Shown here in pieces: positions 17,908 through 25,351 of a DNA stretch of 61,470 bases. Both the position numbers and the translations under genes were made by a program. Origin of the DNA: Candidatus Aenigmatarchaeota archaeon (GTDB lineage Archaea > Aenigmatarchaeota > Aenigmatarchaeia > CG10238-14 > SCSR01). The DNA is taken from NCBI GenBank assembly GCA_018304615.1, contig JAGVVV010000003.1, positions 1 through 61,470 of the forward strand. The letters are read 5' to 3'. The notes beneath the pieces are model-generated. The model searched no databases. It saw only the letters and a program-made list of their open reading frames with translations, and was not told the origin of the DNA. How positions within the stretch are numbered: position 1 is the first letter of the stretch; each line of letters opens with the position of its first letter.

Positions 17908-19383
17908 TTACTTTACAAAACACATAGAGTTACAAATTCCACGTAAGTGATAAATACATTTTTTACATATTTCTGGAATTTTCATGTTACTGTGTACTGA
18001 ATTGAAATAATCAAATATTTGTTCTCTATTGTTTACTTGTTTTAACTCAGGCCCGAACTTATTTTTGAGCGGTTCGCAGAATTTTATTATCCCATTTTCC
18101 ACTGTGAACATTTCCCTGCATTCAAAACAGTTTTTCGGCTGTTTATCCATCTCCATTTTCAGACATGGAGGAAGAGGCCTACTTAAAACAAACTTGATTT
18201 TCTCATTCCTCAATTTTTCTAGGAAATTCTGAATTTTAATTCTTGTTTTCTGATTCCAAAGATCTTTTTCTTTTAATTCAAAAGATAATAAAAATTCCCT
18301 GTCACCGACTCCATAATGTCCGTGAAGTTTCTTTTTCTCCATCAACTCATTTAAAATAAAATCAAAATCATCATACGTTCTTATTCTAACAAATTTTCTC
18401 CCTATTGCTTCTTCATGGAAATTCTTATCAAAAGGAATGTTTCTTAACATATCAAAAATATCATCGAATTTCATAGGAACGAAATTTTGAATTTCCCAAT
18501 AATTTTCTCTTGAAAATAAAAAGTTTCCCGAGTATGTGTTCTTGAATTTCTCTATCATGTTGGAAAGATTTCCCTCAGCGATATTTCCCATGAACTCAGA
18601 TTTGAAAGTAAATGAAGTAGCGTAAACGTTTCCATTTGGAAAAGTAGTTGGAAAGAATCTAGCTCCAAACTTCACTTTAGTCGAGTTGGTGAGGTAGTAT
18701 CTATAATCATTGGGAGTTTTATATTTCTTAGCATAATAACTGATTTTTTTAAAAATGTAATCTTCAACCTGATTAAAATTCTGCCGGGGAGTAGTATCTA
18801 GGTTTTCAGCCCTTCCAACAACTCCCCATGTGTGAACTTCTATAGGTGTCTCATGCTTTACTATGATTTCAGCTATTTTGTCTATAAGTGGAAAACTTAA
18901 CATGTCAAGGCTGAGTCTCAGAATAATTTCTATATCCATTTCTTTACATACTTCAGCTACATTGTTTATTTTTGTAAGTGGGACTCTAGGCAAATGAAAT
19001 CTGTCGACACTAACTATCATTGTATCGAAATCGGCATTTTTTATTACATTCAAGTTTCTTCTTGTGTTTCCGATACTTCCAGCAAACACAGCAGAACTAA
19101 TTATGTTAAGGTCAAATGGCTTATAATATTCCAACAAAATATCGATGCATCTCTTCAATTTATCTAAATTGTAAAATGGTTCTCCCCCGCAAATTCTTAT
19201 TGCAATATCATTTTTTGAATATTCTTCTGCAACTCTTCTGATAGTTTCTTCAGGCATCCATTTCTGCGGTTCAAGAGATGGAAGACACGAATAAACACAA
19301 AAATCACAATTAACAGGACATGCCATCGTTATTAGCAAATCCCCGTCTACAGGCTTGTGCCTGACATCTTTTTTAATGACCAT
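17908..19383 (-). CDS. radical SAM protein with a Cys-rich C-terminal extension
   Basis: ITMACPVNCDFC, ICGGEP; C-terminal RPLPPCL, CFEC, FCEP, CKKC...ICNSMC. Confidence 0.88.
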   Translation of the reverse strand: MVIKKDVRHKPVDGDLLITMACPVNCDFCVYSCLPSLEPQKWMPEETIRRVAEEYSKNDIAIRICGGEPFYNLDKLKRCIDILLEYYKPFDLNIISSAVFAGSIGNTRRNLNVIKNADFDTMIVSVDRFHLPRVPLTKINNVAEVCKEMDIEIILRLSLDMLSFPLIDKIAEIIVKHETPIEVHTWGVVGRAENLDTTPRQNFNQVEDYIFKKISYYAKKYKTPNDYRYYLTNSTKVKFGARFFPTTFPNGNVYATSFTFKSEFMGNIAEGNLSNMIEKFKNTYSGNFLFSRENYWEIQNFVPMKFDDIFDMLRNIPFDKNFHEEAIGRKFVRIRTYDDFDFILNELMEKKKLHGHYGVGDREFLLSFELKEKDLWNQKTRIKIQNFLEKLRNEKIKFVLSRPLPPCLKMEMDKQPKNCFECREMFTVENGIIKFCEPLKNKFGPELKQVNNREQIFDYFNSVHSNMKIPEICKKCIYHLRGICNSMCFVK

Positions 19384-19424: not shown

Positions 19425-20009
19425 TCAATAAAATATTGATGTTTTTGCATCGAGTATAACCCAAAATCCAGTATAAACAATGGGATTATTTTCTTGTGTT
19501 TTTTTAATACAATCAAGATAATAATCAGAAGGTTCAGGAACATCAGATAGGTGAAATTTTTTGCATCCAAAGTAAAAAACATAATAATCATCCATATTAT
19601 CTTGTATTCCAGAATTTCCGTAAAAGATGCAATTTGGACCATTTCTAATTGCATCATCTATTAATTTGGCTGATTGTTCATTACAATTTTTAATATAGCC
19701 AAGGTAAACATAAGAATTATTTTTATCTTGATAATAGATTTCTGAATACAGCTTTCCGAACTCGCAAGTTATTTCATAATTTGAGCCGATTTTTTTAATA
19801 TGAGCTGCGTTGACTAAAGATTCATTTGCAGGGTTATCGCATTTCCAACTATTATCCCAATTCGATAAAAACCAAAAATCAACATTTCTTAATTCCGAAA
19901 AATTGTCAGAAAATGAAACATGAACAGGTTTATGAGAATATAAAATTATAAAAGCTAATACTATTCCTATAACAATAACAATACCAAATATTTTTTTTTC
20001 ACTTATCAT
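19425..20009 (-). CDS. membrane-anchored exported hypothetical protein
   Basis: N-terminal TM then a six-Cys soluble domain; co-oriented directly downstream of the precursor gene. Confidence 0.65.
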   Translation of the reverse strand: MISEKKIFGIVIVIGIVLAFIILYSHKPVHVSFSDNFSELRNVDFWFLSNWDNSWKCDNPANESLVNAAHIKKIGSNYEITCEFGKLYSEIYYQDKNNSYVYLGYIKNCNEQSAKLIDDAIRNGPNCIFYGNSGIQDNMDDYYVFYFGCKKFHLSDVPEPSDYYLDCIKKTQENNPIVYTGFWVILDAKTSIFY

Positions 20010-20057: not shown

Positions 20058-21365
20058 TTAACAACCACCGGTAGTGGCAGTAGTACTGATAGTAGTACTG
20101 ACAGTAGTACTAGTAGTATCACAACTTATATTATGTACCAATACTCCATCAGCAAAGAACGAATGCGTCCTGGTAATATTCTTAATTGTGTATGTCTGTA
20201 TCACTCCATATTCAAAGTCTATCTTGACAACCGTCTTAAACTTCAAATCACTCGTCATTACCATATCTCCGATTTGTAATTGAAGTACTCTTGATTTCTG
20301 CAATAACAATGAATTCTGTCCTCCCTTTGACTGAACTTCACTTCTCATATAAGCCTCTTCGCTTCCAGTAGGATCGACAGCCTTCCATCCACCAGCCGTG
20401 TAAATGGGATGATCCCTACTTATTCTCAGTTTACTGTTATCGTCGAAAGTAATCTTACAAATATAATCATGAACTACACTTTCTAATCCAAGAACTTTTC
20501 CTATTGCAAGTTGATTAGTATTTTCATCATAACCCATCACCCTCTCACCAATCTGCACATCCTCAATATTCTTCAGACTCCCATTCCCCATGAGTACCTT
20601 CGTCCCTCCCGGAAGACATGTATAAGCTGAGGTCGCCGGTCCTGTAGTAAATATATTATGTACCAATACTCCATCAACAAAGAACGAACACGTCCCTTGG
20701 AGGGTGTATGTCTGTATCACTCCATATTCAAAGTCTATCTTGACAACCGTCTTAAACTTCAAATCACTCGTCATCACTCTATCTCCTGTCTGTAGTTGCA
20801 GTACTCTAGATTTCTGTAAGAGTAAGGAGTTTTGTCTACCTTTCGATTGAACTGTTTCGTCACCGAAATAAGTTTCTTCACTTTTGCTCGGGTCAATAGC
20901 CTTCCATCCACCGGCCGTATAAATCGGATGGTCATTTGTTATTCTCAATTCAGTGTTGTCATCAAAAGTAATCTTACAGACATAATCACGTAATGGCCTC
21001 TTCAACCCAAGAACCTCCTTTATGGTCATGTTGTGGGTATTTTCATCATAACCCATCACCCTCTCACCAATCTGCACATCCTCAATATTCTTCAGACTCC
21101 CATCCCCCATGAGTACCTTCGTCCCTCCCGGAAGACAGCAGCTTCCAGTAGTTCCAGTAGTGCTCACAGAACTAGAATGTGACCCTTGGATATTAGGTTT
21201 TGCATAATTGATATTTGTGGAGGAAGTGTGTGTGGCTGCAGTAGCGGCAGTAACTCCAGCAAGTGCAGTTCCTATGGCGACTAGAGCCTTCTTTGATATT
21301 TTTCCTTCCTCACCAGTAAGGAAATCGGATATGTTTTTCTTAATCTTAGGAAGATTCAAAGTCAT
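20058..21365 (-). CDS. His-Xaa-Ser-type peptide precursor containing two tandem Hint (BIL-like) domains
   Basis: Leader DFLTGEEGKISKKALV, HTS (aa46-48) and HSS (aa63-65); Hint1 aa77-237, spacer aa238-249, Hint2 aa250-412, tail aa413-435. Confidence 0.85.
   Translation of the reverse strand: MTLNLPKIKKNISDFLTGEEGKISKKALVAIGTALAGVTAATAATHTSSTNINYAKPNIQGSHSSSVSTTGTTGSCCLPGGTKVLMGDGSLKNIEDVQIGERVMGYDENTHNMTIKEVLGLKRPLRDYVCKITFDDNTELRITNDHPIYTAGGWKAIDPSKSEETYFGDETVQSKGRQNSLLLQKSRVLQLQTGDRVMTSDLKFKTVVKIDFEYGVIQTYTLQGTCSFFVDGVLVHNIFTTGPATSAYTCLPGGTKVLMGNGSLKNIEDVQIGERVMGYDENTNQLAIGKVLGLESVVHDYICKITFDDNSKLRISRDHPIYTAGGWKAVDPTGSEEAYMRSEVQSKGGQNSLLLQKSRVLQLQIGDMVMTSDLKFKTVVKIDFEYGVIQTYTIKNITRTHSFFADGVLVHNISCDTTSTTVSTTISTTATTGGC
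20079..20114. repeat. 12-bp tandem repeat, three copies, encoding STT(V/I/A)
   Basis: AGTAGTACT(G/A) units at 20079, 20091 and 20103. Confidence 0.8.
20130..20618 (-). other. Hint domain 2 (163 aa, no endonuclease)
   Basis: Starts CLPGGTKV, block B SRDHP, ends HSFFADGVLVHN; +1 residue Ile. Confidence 0.92.
20655..21137 (-). other. Hint domain 1 (161 aa, no endonuclease)
   Basis: Starts CLPGGTKV, block B TNDHP, ends SFFVDGVLVHN; +1 residue Ile. Confidence 0.92.
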
Positions 21366-21392: not shown

Positions 21393-22142
21393 CTAACTTA
21401 AATGTTCCCCATCTCTCATCTTTTGGTATACATCCAAATTAGTTACCATCTCAGCTTTTATTTCCATGCTTTTGACTAGCTTGAACCCCAACGAAAGCAT
21501 AAGTGCCTGAAGTATCTGAGACGACCAGACATACATCTTGAATTTTACCATCCCCTTTCCTTTAAAAGAAACCCTGATTAATTCAATTGAATTATCTAAA
21601 TGGGAATAATTTCCATTAATGTTAAGGAAATTATCTGATGTGGAGATAGAATACTGATCCCTCAAGACAGATTTGAGAGAATCATTATAACTAATCAACA
21701 CATTTCCTTTTTTCCTCAAGTTCTTGTTCAAATTCCTCATTATTTTGACGAACGAGATTAATGAGATATTAGCCAAGGTATTACCAAACATTGTGAAAGA
21801 ATCAAACATTTTATCCAATTTCACAGTTCCAGCATCTGCATTTTTGAACTCTGATTTGAATTTTAACTTTTTCTTCTCCCCAAGTGCAATTTTTATCATC
21901 TTTTTATTGTTGTCTATCCCTACGATCGAATACCCCTTTGATTCAAGCCATAAAGACAAAAGACCTCCGCCACAACCTATGTCTAAAATTCTACCTTTTA
22001 TCATGCGTTTATTTCCACTCAAGAAAGGTTCAATTTCCTTGTAATTGGCTTCCATCTCAGCAATCCTTTTCTTCCCCCACCGGGAGGAATAAGTATATTT
22101 TTCATAACCTTCAACATCTTTCCAGAAATCAATCACAACCAT
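21393..22142 (-). CDS. class I SAM-dependent methyltransferase
   Basis: ILDIGCGGG, VGIDNN, FKNADA, FDSFTMFGNT. Confidence 0.88.
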   Translation of the reverse strand: MVVIDFWKDVEGYEKYTYSSRWGKKRIAEMEANYKEIEPFLSGNKRMIKGRILDIGCGGGLLSLWLESKGYSIVGIDNNKKMIKIALGEKKKLKFKSEFKNADAGTVKLDKMFDSFTMFGNTLANISLISFVKIMRNLNKNLRKKGNVLISYNDSLKSVLRDQYSISTSDNFLNINGNYSHLDNSIELIRVSFKGKGMVKFKMYVWSSQILQALMLSLGFKLVKSMEIKAEMVTNLDVYQKMRDGEHLS

Positions 22143-22177: not shown

Positions 22178-23638
22178 CTAAATCGAAGAATTCTTCACCC
22201 AGTTCATCATGATTTTGGCGTCTTCAGGATTGAAAATCAGCTTCCTGAACATGTGCTCTATCTGCAAGTCATGTACCTGCAATATGTAGTCTTGCTTCGT
22301 CTTAGTGATTAGATTCTTCTGCTGGCCGTACGAACTGACATGGCATGGGGAAGAATACGGGTGCCAAGGAGAAGTATCGTCCTGAACAGTAGTAGTCAGC
22401 CCTATAAAGTTAATCGCATCCTTTGAAGTGAAAACTTCCCTGTAAGTGTTCTCTTTCACATTTCCCAGTTTGAAAACATCTGAATTCTTCCCTTCGTCAC
22501 ATGTGAAGACATCACCCCACTGGTTGTATCCGGCTTGTGTAATGCAAGCACCGCAAGGGGCTCCAAGACAAGTGTAAGAAGAAGGCTGCAATGTCACGAT
22601 CCTCCTCAGCAAAATGATTATGTCATCCCCCACCATGTTAACTCCTTTCCTGTTTAGTTCCAAAAGATATTCCAGATAATTCTTCCATCCCTCTACAAAC
22701 TCCTCGGCAGTATATCCTATCTTATCCCAAGTCTGTTCAGCCCTACCTGCTATGAAAATAGGCCTGAAACTGATGTGATTCAATCCGTGTTTGATATACT
22801 CATCAACGAGTTCTCTCACATAAGGAAGAGTATACCTTGTGACTGTTGGCATGGCAGTCGAGAAGAAAGGATATTTCAACTCTTTCAATTTATCTATCCA
22901 ATAAACAACCTTTTCATGAGAACTTCCTTTGACCCAAGGCCTGTTCTTGTCGTGAATTTTCTTCGGCCCGTCAAGCGAAGTGCAGATATGGACTTTATTC
23001 ATCATCAAATATTCAAGTTTCTCTTCGTCCATCAAAGTCAAATTTGAAACCAACTGGAAAGTGATTTTCTTAATGCCGTTCCACCATCCGCTTTCATCAG
23101 CCTCCTTACTTTTGTTTATTTTCTTCGCTCGTTCAATCATGAATTCAATCATTGGAAAATTAAGTAAAGGCTCTCCTCCTGTGAATTCAATTGTCAGATA
23201 CGGGGACGGAGATTGGAAGATGAAATCTATAGTAGCCTTTGCAGTCTTCTTATCCATGTCAACCCCTTTCTTGTTTTCATGGACTGCATAAGGATAGCAG
23301 TACAAACAACCTTGGTTACATCTCAAAGTTGGAGTGATAATGTGAAGATTAGTTCCAGTGAAGATCCTGTTGAATCTCATCCTATACATGTTGGTAAGTT
23401 TGTCATGGTTCCTCTCAGTGATTATTACCCCTTTCTCTTCCAAAACAGAAAACAAATTAAGATCTTCTTCTAACTTGTCCATTTTGAAAAGTCTGAATTC
23501 TTTTCCATCAAGTACAACCCAACTTCCATGTTCTGTAGTAATCAGATGATGATTCTCATCAAACTTTTTCACCCAATGCTTGTTGATCTCATGCAATGGA
23601 GCAGAAGTCTCAGAATTTACTGAAAGTGAGAGTGCCAT
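22178..23638 (-). CDS. hxsB: His-Xaa-Ser system radical SAM maturase HxsB-like
   Basis: LHIITPTLRCNQGCLYCY, TIEFTGGEPLLNF, ICTSLDGPKKIHDKNR, TCLGAPCGACITQAGYNQWGDVFTCDEG. Confidence 0.82.
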   Translation of the reverse strand: MALSLSVNSETSAPLHEINKHWVKKFDENHHLITTEHGSWVVLDGKEFRLFKMDKLEEDLNLFSVLEEKGVIITERNHDKLTNMYRMRFNRIFTGTNLHIITPTLRCNQGCLYCYPYAVHENKKGVDMDKKTAKATIDFIFQSPSPYLTIEFTGGEPLLNFPMIEFMIERAKKINKSKEADESGWWNGIKKITFQLVSNLTLMDEEKLEYLMMNKVHICTSLDGPKKIHDKNRPWVKGSSHEKVVYWIDKLKELKYPFFSTAMPTVTRYTLPYVRELVDEYIKHGLNHISFRPIFIAGRAEQTWDKIGYTAEEFVEGWKNYLEYLLELNRKGVNMVGDDIIILLRRIVTLQPSSYTCLGAPCGACITQAGYNQWGDVFTCDEGKNSDVFKLGNVKENTYREVFTSKDAINFIGLTTTVQDDTSPWHPYSSPCHVSSYGQQKNLITKTKQDYILQVHDLQIEHMFRKLIFNPEDAKIMMNWVKNSSI

Positions 23639-23899
23639 TCACTGACCTCTTTCCTTCACAGCATTTAGCAAATGATTGTAAAACTCATATCCCAGCAATT
23701 CCATCTCCTCCGGTTTTAGATTCTTTTTCGGCTGCATTTCAACGAATATCCTAGACTTTTCATCTGCCGCAACTACATGGCAAACCTGCTCGAATTCTTC
23801 TTTCACCTTTTTCACAGACTCGAAATCATAGAATTTTGGATTTATGAACAACTGGACTCTATTTCCGTTTACCTTTATTTTTTCTGCTAACTTTGGCAC
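23639..23899 (-). CDS. HxsD-like small protein
   Basis: FINPKFYD...GYEFYNHLL, paralogous pattern to the adjacent 139-aa protein. Confidence 0.65.
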   Translation of the reverse strand: MPKLAEKIKVNGNRVQLFINPKFYDFESVKKVKEEFEQVCHVVAADEKSRIFVEMQPKKNLKPEEMELLGYEFYNHLLNAVKERGQ

Positions 23900-24278
23900 T
23901 CTTTACTTTCCCCCTTTTAACTGGAGCACTCTTTACTTCAGATTCTTGTGATTGAGTCTCAAACGCTTTCTGGATTATCATTCCCCTAAGAACAGCATTT
24001 TTCTCCACCTGAGTATTGTAAACAGAATAACTGACTAACTCATTGTTGAACTGCCTCCCCAATTCTTCCAGGTTTATTTTAGCGTCTTTCCTCCTCAACT
24101 GGACTATTATTTCCTCATTGGGGTCTCCGTCAATCAGCACCCACGCCTTGTCTACAAGAATATATGCGGCAGAAAAAATCGTGTTCATCGGGTAAATCTT
24201 GGGATTCACAGAAATGACGACATTTCCAGTCTTCTCATCGACTTCCAGATTATCTACAGACAAAATTCCTTCTGCCAT
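23859..24278 (-). CDS. hxsD: His-Xaa-Ser system protein HxsD-like
   Basis: VNPKIYPMNTIFSAAYILVDKAWVLIDGD...LGRQFNNELV pattern; first gene of the cluster. Confidence 0.72.
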   Translation of the reverse strand: MAEGILSVDNLEVDEKTGNVVISVNPKIYPMNTIFSAAYILVDKAWVLIDGDPNEEIIVQLRRKDAKINLEELGRQFNNELVSYSVYNTQVEKNAVLRGMIIQKAFETQSQESEVKSAPVKRGKVKSAKVSRKNKGKRK

Positions 24279-24319: not shown

Positions 24320-25351
24320 ATGGTCGATTTAATACTTATTGCTATTATTGTCTTCGGATTTATTAATTCCTATACCGATTTGAAATATTCCAAAATAAAA
24401 AACGTTTTAATAATTCTAATGATTCTTTCATCAGCAGTCCTTAACTTCTATCTGAATTCATTCACATACGAAACGATAATCAACTCTTCAATATCCCTTG
24501 CTCTAGGATTCTTTCTTTTTTATCTGAACTACTGGTCTGCCGGAGACGCCAAACTATTTTTCGCATTCTCCCTTCTTGTTCCAATCTCAGTCTACCACTT
24601 TGGCAAAGTAAGCTACTTCCCATCCATCAGCATCTTGATCAACGCCTTCGTCCCAGTTACAATTTACTATTTGCTCAAATCGGTTACAACCCTGAAAATA
24701 AAAAACCTTGTCAATATCCTAAAAGATCAATTGAAACCAAAAACACTACTCGCAACAGTTCTATTCCTTTTCGGTTTTCCTTTCATATTCAATTTTTTCA
24801 ATCTGAAACTCGATGTAATCTCCTCAGTGTTCATCTTGCTCCTTCTTTTCCAGGTTCTTAAGAAATTTCCCAAAAAATATTCCCTTGTCTTCTTCGTTTC
24901 ACTTTCCATCCTCAATCTACTCTTCTATCCGGATAAAATTCTAGTTCCTCCTTTCTTTTACAATTTCATCCTTTCAGTAATTATCTATCAGATATTCAAC
25001 TTAGCCCTAAGTTTCCTATTTACCCTATCTTTTTCAAACCAGTTCTTAATTGACAAATTGAAACCTGGGATGATCCTAGGCGAGCCATTATTCGAACTTG
25101 GAAATAAATTCAGCAAAAAATCAAAAAAAGGAGAAAAGATAACGAAACTCTCGCAAGAAGACATCTCGTTGCTTAACAAATTGTACAAATCTGGGAAACT
25201 GGATTTTAAAACTCTCCTGATTGAGAGAACAGTTCCATTCGCACCTTTCATTTTCATAGGAGTTCTTCTCACATACTTAGTCCAAGGAAACCTGTTTTCT
25301 TACGTCTACCTCATCTATCTGAAACCTTATTTTGCGACTTTACTAAGTTGA
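24320..25351 (+). CDS. class III signal (prepilin) peptidase, A24/FlaK-PibD-like
   Basis: YTDLK first Asp, WSAGDAKL GxGD-type motif, C-terminal VPFAPFIFIG. Confidence 0.85.
   Translation: MVDLILIAIIVFGFINSYTDLKYSKIKNVLIILMILSSAVLNFYLNSFTYETIINSSISLALGFFLFYLNYWSAGDAKLFFAFSLLVPISVYHFGKVSYFPSISILINAFVPVTIYYLLKSVTTLKIKNLVNILKDQLKPKTLLATVLFLFGFPFIFNFFNLKLDVISSVFILLLLFQVLKKFPKKYSLVFFVSLSILNLLFYPDKILVPPFFYNFILSVIIYQIFNLALSFLFTLSFSNQFLIDKLKPGMILGEPLFELGNKFSKKSKKGEKITKLSQEDISLLNKLYKSGKLDFKTLLIERTVPFAPFIFIGVLLTYLVQGNLFSYVYLIYLKPYFATLLS

Follow-up and report, generated by a model that had tools for sequence, protein, structure and literature searches.

The window analysed here, a stretch of 61,470 nucleotides from contig JAGVVV010000003.1 (assembly GCA_018304615.1, Candidatus Aenigmatarchaeota archaeon), contains a cluster of genes related to Hxs systems, in which radical S-adenosylmethionine (SAM) enzymes are encoded beside a substrate with His-Xaa-Ser (HxS) motifs, and the substrate candidate of this cluster carries two tandem Hint domains. 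The gene for this precursor occupies positions 20058-21365 of the minus strand and encodes 435 amino acids, with its stop codon at 20058-20060 in the open reading frame list. The first-pass annotation of the locus gave these coordinates correctly but on the wrong strand, the plus-strand frame being riddled with stops and the intact 435-residue frame lying on the minus strand; all the features it named (leader, hydrophobic stretch, HTS and HSS motifs, two Hints and their flanks) are present. We favour, at a probability of roughly 0.55, the interpretation that Hints of the bacterial intein-like (BIL) type excise themselves, mainly by cleavage, from the sole substrate of an archaeal Hxs-related cluster, the leader being removed separately.

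Read from its N-terminus, with all parts on the minus strand, the precursor begins with a charged n-region, MTLNLPKIKKNISDFLTGEEGKISKK (residues 1-26, positions 21288-21365), a recognition leader of the HxsA3/A4 type that has also been quoted in the shorter form ...DFLTGEEGKISKK and whose invariant residues are L5, P6, K7, K9, K10, F15, L16, E19, E20, G21, I23, S24 and K25. The hydrophobic stretch ALVAIGTALAGVTAATAA (residues 27-44, 21234-21287) reads as the h-region of a signal peptide or membrane anchor with an AxA-like end, and cleavage sites are predicted within this leader and hydrophobic region. The core, T-HTS-STNINY-AKPNIQGS-HSS-SVSTTGTTGSC (residues 45-76, 21138-21233), combines a bipartite HxS...Y...HxS module with a Ser/Thr-rich linker; HTS occupies residues 46-48 and HSS residues 63-65, STNINYAKPNIQGS lies between them, and the last residue, Cys76, is the -1 residue of Hint1. 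Pfam, alignment and an AlphaFold2 model delimit Hint1 (residues 77-237, 20655-21137), which starts at Cys77, has TNDH in block B and ends in ...FFVDGVLVHN237. The 12-residue spacer IFTTGPATSAYT (residues 238-249, 20619-20654) separates Asn237 from Cys250, the first residue of Hint2 (residues 250-412, 20130-20618; block B SRDH, end ...THSFFADGVLVHN412), which was delimited by Pfam, alignment and tree, and the protein closes with the Ser/Thr-rich tail ISCDTTSTTVSTTISTTATTGGC (residues 413-435, 20061-20129).

The NCBIfam family HxsA3 (NF038309) matches residues 5-39 at an expect value (E) of 1.3e-6, but its 28 bits fall below the 65-bit cut-off, and the match covers the leader only; two HxS motifs, 14 residues apart, stand where tandem repeats were looked for. 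The precursor has the pattern of the HxsA3/HxsA4-like leader family (LPKIKKxxxxFLxxEEGxISKx followed by a hydrophobic stretch, beside HxsD and HxsB genes), the layout of charged leader and hydrophobic stretch recurs throughout this family, and the HxS...Y...HxS module is also present in relatives of the same order. Assignment of the precursor to the Hxs type, as the first-pass annotation had proposed, is supported by this leader, by the HxsB- and HxsD-like neighbours and by its being the only leader-bearing gene of the genome.

The cluster is a minus-strand run of hxsD, a second hxsD-like gene, an hxsB-like gene, a methyltransferase gene, the precursor, a hypothetical gene and a second radical SAM enzyme. 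The HxsD-like protein (139 residues, 23859-24278) matches TIGR03976 at E 8.7e-11 (42 bits against a cut-off of 50) and is conserved in related loci, where its orthologues bear the precomputed Pfam assignment PF27806 HxsD; the second, small HxsD-related protein (86 residues, 23639-23899) matches NF038315 HxsD_rel at E 6.6e-9 (35.8 bits, cut-off 41), and a gene of 70-86 residues holds its position in loci L001, L002, L033 and L115. The HxsB-like radical SAM/SPASM maturase (486 residues, 22178-23638) aligns with TIGR03978 over its full length (protein 24-481 to model 7-466/466) at E 1e-101 and 341 bits, against a cut-off of 370, a narrow shortfall that marks it as a close relative, and its orthologues adjoin precursors in L001, L002, L025-L027, L030, L033 and L115. 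The second radical SAM enzyme (491 residues, 17908-19383), with a YydG-like N-terminal half and a Cys-rich C-terminus, is not a canonical HxsC (TIGR03977, 20.4 bits against a cut-off of 267.9); its best match is the YydG family (TIGR04078, 65 bits), and orthologues come after precursors in L003 (59% identity), L005, L026 and L115 (65%). The curated equivalog cut-offs for HxsB, HxsC and HxsD are thus all missed in the window.

The remaining genes of the run are a class I SAM methyltransferase between hxsB and the precursor (249 residues, 21393-22142; Pfam Methyltransf_31/25/11) and, between the precursor and the second radical SAM gene, a hypothetical membrane or exported protein (194 residues, 19425-20009). 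No methyltransferase gene was found in the related loci compared, and the enzyme is a candidate lineage-specific tailoring enzyme. The 194-residue protein had no family match in Pfam and NCBIfam scans, and a single homologue was found, namely the C-terminal half of a 466-residue frame in L029. Divergent from hxsD, on the plus strand, lies a gene for a membrane aspartyl peptidase of the A24 (prepilin-peptidase-like) family (24320-25351; PF01478, 33.3 bits, cut-off 26.5).

The host is a DPANN-type archaeon: genes for TBP and RNase P p30 occur in related loci, and the nearest named relatives of the window Hint are in metagenome-assembled genomes (MAGs) of Woesearchaeota, Pacearchaeota and Nanoarchaeota. 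The window itself contains no rRNA. In the host genome (785 kb, 22 contigs, ~89% complete) no gene besides the precursor matches the leader profile or a Hint, and no second, conventional Hxs precursor was found by leader-profile and whole-protein searches of the ~89% assembled. The HxsB-like enzyme therefore has no alternative substrate in that assembled 89%.

Two stretches of the precursor each match the Pfam families Hom_end_hint (E 7.5e-21), Hint (2.4e-17) and Intein_splicing (5.4e-14), the last aligning residues 259-412 of Hint2 with positions 3-155 of a 155-position model; PT-HINT (PF07591; E 5.7e-13, 49.7 bits) and the NCBIfam model intein_Nterm also exceed their cut-offs. Hidden Markov model searches thus confirmed the Hint and intein families expected by the first-pass annotation, while HxsA3, HxsB and HxsD scored below theirs. 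Among the hallmarks of class 1 inteins, Cys1 (C77, C250), block B (TNDH, SRDH) and the terminal His-Asn (VHN ends at N237 and N412) are present in both Hints, and a Cys, Ser or Thr at +1 is absent, this residue being Ile in each (Ile238, Ile413). Hint1 and Hint2 share 80% of their amino acids, with a ratio of nonsynonymous to synonymous substitution rates (dN/dS) of 0.18 at a dS of 0.70 and DNA identities from 60% to 100% across 60-nucleotide windows; comparison of the window Hints with the Hint of the related precursor P0002 gives dN/dS values of 0.06-0.10. An alignment of 30 sequences shows no variation at Cys1, at the block-B His or in the terminal His-Asn. The Hints are maintained under purifying selection, and the idea that they are decaying is rejected by these dN/dS values and the invariant catalytic residues; the combination of Cys1, (T/S)xxH and His-Asn with a missing +1 nucleophile, noted at first pass, is borne out by the sequence and by dN/dS.

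An AlphaFold2 model of Hint1 with its flanks, built from the 30-row alignment, has a Hint fold with a predicted local distance difference test (pLDDT) score of 84; a single-sequence prediction of the whole precursor was discarded (pLDDT 32). The top Foldseek matches to the Hint1 model are structures of Tetrahymena BIL2 (6TMM/6Y75; E 3.5e-12, template-modelling score 0.83-0.88 on the target); 2LWY, a BIL domain of C. thermocellum, comes fifth among the chains and second among distinct proteins, and mini-inteins follow. The Hedgehog autoprocessing domain 1AT0 ranks 26th, far weaker than BIL domains or inteins, and the parallel with Hedgehog autoprocessing drawn by the first-pass annotation gives way to BIL domains as the closest structural relatives. 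On our reading, residues, position in a variable region and fold make the window Hints BIL-type and A-type-like, proximity to 2LWY standing as the proxy for the A-type motifs.

Comparison with characterized Hint proteins places these domains more closely. BIL domains have no nucleophile at +1 and yield cleavage products for the most part (PMC7664689); their hosts are non-conserved proteins, in whose hypervariable regions they are found, and A-type members have a conserved C-terminal His-Asn (PMC7664689, PMC7765530). With A-type BIL domains (Amitai 2003; Dassa 2004; 2LWY) the window Hints share Cys1, a block-B TxxH, His-Asn, the missing +1 nucleophile, the lack of an endonuclease and a location in the hypervariable region of a non-conserved, probably secreted protein; they differ in that their host is a predicted radical-SAM-modified peptide precursor in an archaeon and that the hallmark of their Hint clade is a +1 Lys. 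BIL2 of Tetrahymena thermophila BUBL1, which forms a Lys isopeptide and proceeds through a thioester and Asn cyclization without a +1 Cys, Ser or Thr (PMC8616854), is the best structural but a weak sequence match (18-19% identity) and likewise lies between short or small polypeptides of a polyprotein; BIL2, however, ligates a ubiquitin-like domain to Lys, whereas the window Hints have +1 Ile and no ubiquitin-like neighbours. Hedgehog shares the Hint fold and an exported N-terminal product formed via a Cys thioester (predicted in the window), but lacks the terminal His-Asn and has a sterol-recognition region that supplies the nucleophile, the window protein being the opposite on both counts. 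Class 1 mini-inteins (gp41-1, Ssp DnaB) share blocks A, B, F and G, a length of 161-163 residues and the lack of an endonuclease; unlike them, the window Hints have +1 Ile and occupy a variable linker rather than a conserved active site of the host. In contrast to the PT-HINT domains of polymorphic toxins, whose model is matched above its cut-off, no toxin domain, nor any other domain, follows either window Hint, only a Ser/Thr-rich peptide of 12 or 23 residues.

Under the self-excision interpretation, the conserved N-terminal 70-76 residues would be the working part of the precursor, comprising a charged recognition leader, a hydrophobic segment for export or anchoring and an H-x-S...Y...H-x-S core. 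The radical SAM machinery would bind the leader and modify the core in the cytoplasm, probably through the HxsB-like enzyme with the HxsD proteins and perhaps also through the second radical SAM enzyme and the methyltransferase. Each Hint would form a thioester at its Cys1 (C77, C250) by an N-S acyl shift, and the C-terminal junctions would be cut by cyclization of Asn237 and Asn412. Because Ile at +1 makes canonical trans-esterification impossible, self-excision by cleavage is the expected main outcome, with the flanks mostly left unjoined; the predicted products are the Hxs module ending in Cys76, as a transient thioester and then a carboxylate, two free Hints, the 12-residue spacer and the 23-residue tail. 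Leader removal would be a separate step on export, by the A24 peptidase and/or a signal peptidase.

The fusion of this leader to Hints is not confined to the window. A profile built from five leaders (first 60 residues) and searched against 1.84 billion cluster representatives retrieved 478 representatives at E<=1e-3, mostly 70-150 residues long and rich in His or HxS. The best 150 of these have a median length of 108 residues, with His-rich/HxS or Cys-rich cores that mostly end in Tyr, Trp or Cys; Hint-less members match HxsA3/A4 at E 1e-6 to 5e-15, all below cut-off. Pfam confirmed Hints in eight of the best 150, namely P0001 (identical to the window precursor and found on 6 contigs), P0002, P0003, P0011, P0093, P0108, P0215 and P0224. 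P0002 (280 residues) joins a leader and core of the window type to one Hint, P0003 (433 residues) has two Hints, and P0011 and P0013 (272 residues) run from the leader through classical HGSHSSHGSHGSHSS repeats directly into a Cys-Cys-Hint with a VHN-KGM end. Hint-bearing precursors of this leader family thus occur in at least five other divergent metagenomic lineages, in three of them beside HxsD/HxsB, so that the leader-Hint fusions next to hxsB anticipated at first pass do exist in unrelated lineages (L001, L002, L033/L034). Leader-family precursors are syntenic with HxsD/HxsB in 10 loci, and the order HxsD, small HxsD-like gene, HxsB, precursor is shared by Hint-bearing (L001, L002, L033/L034) and Hint-less (L025-L030, L115) loci: the L001 and L002 contigs, with archaeal surroundings, have HxsD, a small gene, HxsB, one further gene and the precursor, and the P0224 operon (L033/L034) has the A24 peptidase, HxsD, a 79-residue gene, HxsB, the precursor, a 207-residue gene and a radical SAM enzyme. 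The leader is present in 24 of the 371 species genomes that represent the phylum, and among these the window genome alone has the leader-Hint fusion; this patchy spread fits an accessory role.

Two further leader-family proteins were set aside as Hint carriers: P0213 has only the N-terminal half of a Hint, and P0209 (215 residues) has only a block-A-like remnant before a region resembling sulfatase-C/CHB_HEX_C. In P0209 the Hxs-type leader is followed by 'DDCCFVAGT', and the protein may be a chimera or contain a degraded Hint. The gene between HxsB and the precursor in L001/L002 encodes 400 residues with no family match, and two large B12-binding radical SAM genes (~730 and ~785 residues; L001 8822-13372, L002 4300-8846) lie tail-to-tail with P0011/P0013.

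Within the leader family the Hints behave like insertions. Their position differs, from after the HxS repeats (P0011) to between the leader/hydrophobic segment and a His-rich core (P0108), and in P0215 and P0224 the Hint splits off a tail of 5-7 residues (KGGWC, HGGPCGW) that is like the C-termini of Hint-less members (GGWC, GGPCNW). Those Hints that are associated with Hxs precursors are not united in a maximum-likelihood tree of 38 Hints, which needs five label changes, two of them forced by well-supported branches; as sisters (100/97), window Hint1 and Hint2 fall in a clade (97/92) that also holds P0002 and the first P0003 Hint, and the second P0003 Hint groups apart with P0093 and an Elusimicrobia protein. 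A single origin of the fusion is rejected by the five label changes and by the placement of the P0003 Hints in different clades; Hints were gained more than once in Hxs-type precursors, and the window Hints are in-paralogues from a lineage-specific duplication. A sister cluster (L115, L116) has an HxsB 88%, an HxsD 93%, an A24 peptidase 59% and a second radical SAM enzyme 65% identical to those of the window, and its precursor P0082 (115 residues) is Hint-less: it is 79% identical to the window precursor over residues 1-70 and then has a Ser/Thr/Cys-rich tail, to which the window tail ISCDTTSTTVSTTISTTATTGGC is similar in composition but, past residue 70, without alignable similarity. Other relatives of the same order fuse leader and core to unrelated C-terminal parts (L025, 545 residues; L029; L030). 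Variable Hint position, repeated gain, P0082 and these other fused tails together argue that the region after residue ~70 is hypervariable and that Hints are one recurrent occupant of it. The Hints look less like the dedicated C-terminal maturation device envisaged by the first-pass annotation and more like BIL-type insertions. Two of the circumstances that it had seen as counting against its own reading bear on this: the Hints are insertion-like and were repeatedly gained, but their catalytic residues are invariant and dN/dS is low; and no other leader-bearing gene was found in the ~89% of the window genome assembled, whereas the cluster with the 88%-identical HxsB uses the Hint-less P0082.

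As observations on the same loci, the frame at L025 4104-5741 (plus strand) encodes leader and HxS core, an (STT)n linker ending in SGC and a C-terminal region of ~400 residues with no Pfam match. In L115 (5388-7298 and 10414-12114), and likewise in L116, an extra 636-residue radical SAM enzyme comes right after the Cys-rich precursor, and there is a 566-residue prenyltransferase/terpene-cyclase-like gene. P0108 (L031 2026-3012; L032 2475-3461), with its Hint before the core (...HFNGIHFSY...HHHHASHNSY), is on short contigs with no HxsB; there, Asn cyclization would release the core, and the Hint would serve as a self-cutting leader junction.

Several points weigh against self-excision by cleavage. 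All Hxs family scores lie below the curated cut-offs, which means that the assigned function is borrowed from a distant relative; block F of Hint1 has lost three residues and shows a Cys where Hint2 has the block-F His; a folded Hint could be incompatible with Sec export, which bears on the compartment and timing of processing; and, given the Hint-less close relative P0082, the Hints may have no adaptive role. The exteins of the window precursor total 111 residues, near the 115 of P0082, and the P0215/P0224 tails that match a Hint-less C-terminal motif argue for re-joined exteins in at least some members.

These last two points are also what one would expect of splicing without a nucleophilic side chain, in which the alpha-amine freed by Asn cyclization would attack the thioester and restore a 111-residue Ser/Thr-rich precursor like the Hint-less allele, the Hints being neutral or selfish passengers or a timing switch. 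The Hint between leader and core in P0108 and the acquisition of Hints at least twice fit this alternative as well; re-joining of the flanks has been shown for a BIL domain of C. thermocellum, Aranko et al. 2013 (cited in PMC7664689) speak in their title of BIL trans-splicing 'without nucleophilic side chains', and the title of Dassa et al. 2004 (cited in PMC7765530) points the same way. We nevertheless consider splicing unlikely as the main outcome here, because BIL domains give mainly cleaved products (PMC7664689), the +1 position of Hxs-associated Hints varies widely and never holds a nucleophile, the window tail cannot be aligned with P0082 past residue 70, and P0011 and P0013 retain only KGM after the Hint.

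The relatives with other C-terminal domains (L025, L029, L030) raise a different alternative, namely that the Hints are another 'cargo', folded as structural or binding modules of an intact, membrane-anchored surface protein and not catalytic at all; tandem arrays with linkers of 1-6 residues elsewhere in the Hint clade could be taken in the same sense. We regard this as very improbable, since the invariance of Cys1, block-B His and His-Asn in 30 aligned members and the low dN/dS are hard to explain without catalysis.

The residues at the Hint junctions bear on what becomes of the thioester. At +1 the Hxs-associated Hints have I, I, A, Y, K, K, K, D, K and H, none of them Cys, Ser or Thr. At -1, eight of nine Hxs-associated first Hints have Cys compared with 9/65 in the background, counts that are phylogenetically non-independent and represent about six lineages; this enrichment suggests that the chemistry of the junction matters. 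The wider Hint clade is represented in GTDB species genomes by at least 465 loci, from DPANN archaea, Patescibacteria, Thermoplasmata, Bacteroidota and other groups, and was sampled at 79 loci (L036-L114) containing 65 Hints: Lys is the +1 residue in 51/65, and many proteins end exactly in ...VHNK. By analogy, the wider clade may use the +1 Lys as a nucleophile, and the sub-clade of the window has lost it. The notion that a clade Hint is always C-terminal was rejected, the median tail after the 65 GTDB Hints being 150 residues and only 22 lying within 30 residues of the end.

A thioester at Cys77, and perhaps at Cys250, might accordingly be taken by a specific nucleophile and not by water: the N-terminal amine of the core after leader removal, giving head-to-tail cyclization; a Lys or a hydroxyl group of some surface, host or viral target; or a lipid, with parallels in Hedgehog cholesteroylation and Tetrahymena BIL2 Lys conjugation. 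In BIL2, the closest solved structure, a Lys isopeptide is formed and the N-extein becomes attached to other proteins (PMC8616854); the +1 Lys of the clade and the -1 Cys of the Hxs-associated first Hints are compatible with such capture, and the export signal means that the reaction could take place at the cell surface. We think capture quite unlikely for the window protein: its Hints have +1 Ile and not Lys, no acceptor, sterol-recognition-like region or adaptor domain follows them, the Hint-less close relative shows that the system works without a thioester, and the argument is one of analogy. A more specific form of the idea, no less doubtful and drawn from the same analogy, is that the Hints are a natural 'expressed protein ligation' device for an HxS...Y...HxS core already crosslinked by the radical SAM enzymes, the Cys77 thioester being captured by a defined nucleophile. 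This could be the new N-terminus of the core, yielding a backbone-cyclized peptide, or else an amine or hydroxyl group presented by the cell envelope, by a host cell or by a virus particle, and the conserved -1 Cys of Hxs-associated Hints would then be part of the ligation chemistry.

Returning to self-excision, maturation without a peptidase, as the first-pass annotation supposed, is at odds with the A24 gene and with the AxA-like site. A24 homologues adjoin hxsD not only in the window but also in nine related loci (L001, L002, L025, L026, L027, L029, L030, L033 and L115), and each of the nine sequences aligned retains both catalytic Asp motifs, SYxDIKxGKIKN and WSAGDAKLF; the gene is a candidate for the leader peptidase. 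Class III signal-peptide enzymes cut between a charged n-region and a hydrophobic stretch, and by analogy the A24 enzyme would cut the precursor around K26/A27. The hydrophobic stretch ends in AxA-like motifs across the family (VQA|H, ASA|H; TAA|T in the window), which, judged by sequence, are compatible with signal peptidase I.

The only functional study of an HXS system that we found describes HxsD-HxsB-HxsC-HxsA of E. coli as an anti-phage system (Li et al., Nat Commun 2026, PMC13128918). HxsA is there an exported protein of 214 residues that has a signal peptide and five copies of the HxS repeat, and HxsB, HxsC as well as HxsD must be present for it to be processed at the N-terminus and to acquire a +8 Da modification on SHRSS (PMC13128918); the statement of the first-pass annotation that Hxs precursors are normally short peptides does not hold for this characterized member. 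The system is described as occurring almost only in Pseudomonadota, and we found no mention of Hint, intein or archaea, nor of a dedicated peptidase, in that paper (PMC13128918). The window cluster shares with the HXS systems of E. coli/Klebsiella the HxsB-type radical SAM/SPASM enzyme, HxsD-type small proteins, a gene order starting D-B, and a substrate with an N-terminal export signal, His-Xaa-Ser motifs and N-terminal processing (predicted in the window). It differs in being archaeal, in lacking a canonical HxsC, in having two HxsD-like genes and an A24 peptidase, and in a substrate with an HxsA3/A4-like leader, two HxS motifs, no peptidoglycan-binding domain and two Hints. PADLOC gave no informative defence match, its 2023 library being older than the description of HXS, and an antiviral role of the archaeal cluster is conjecture.

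As a rule, separate proteases trim the peptides and proteins that radical SAM enzymes modify, and Hint/BIL domains have been described in inteins, Hedgehog, polymorphic toxins and a ciliate ubiquitin-like locus. Searches of the literature for Hint, intein or BIL together with ribosomally synthesized and post-translationally modified peptides (RiPPs), precursor peptides or radical SAM found no description of such a fusion, in line with the first-pass annotation, which knew of no Hint-containing Hxs precursor; Hxs-type maturation and BIL-type Hints are each known, and their union in one precursor is undescribed in the literature found. A radical-SAM substrate with its own predicted self-cutting, thioester-forming domains would join the RiPP and intein fields. 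Since the fusion occurs in at least six lineages, with the Hint before the core, after the core or inside a C-terminal motif, it offers a natural series in which to ask which of cleavage, splicing and ligation BIL domains carry out in vivo and what role the conserved Cys-Cys junction plays. The HXS (anti-phage) family would also be extended to DPANN archaea, with a dedicated A24 peptidase and a large and diverse precursor family, and productive use of the thioester, if true, would be a ligase-free, ATP-free route to cyclized or conjugated peptides of biotechnological interest.

Among other members of the wider Hint clade, tandem arrays with linkers of 1-6 residues occur in P0033 and L065. The latter, in a Woesearchaeota MAG (JACPMX010000005.1), is a 649-residue frame (L065 3020-4969, plus strand) in which an HxsD-like domain is joined to an Hxs-type leader and to three Hints in tandem, with KDGSC / KDESGC as linkers; no HxsB lies within 8.4 kb, and archaeal pilin-like genes adjoin the frame. 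Proteins of ~750-760 residues (P0004-P0006, P0016-P0028) have an ATP-grasp-like N-terminus and two or three tandem clade Hints at the end, and one cluster among them has 210 member sequences.

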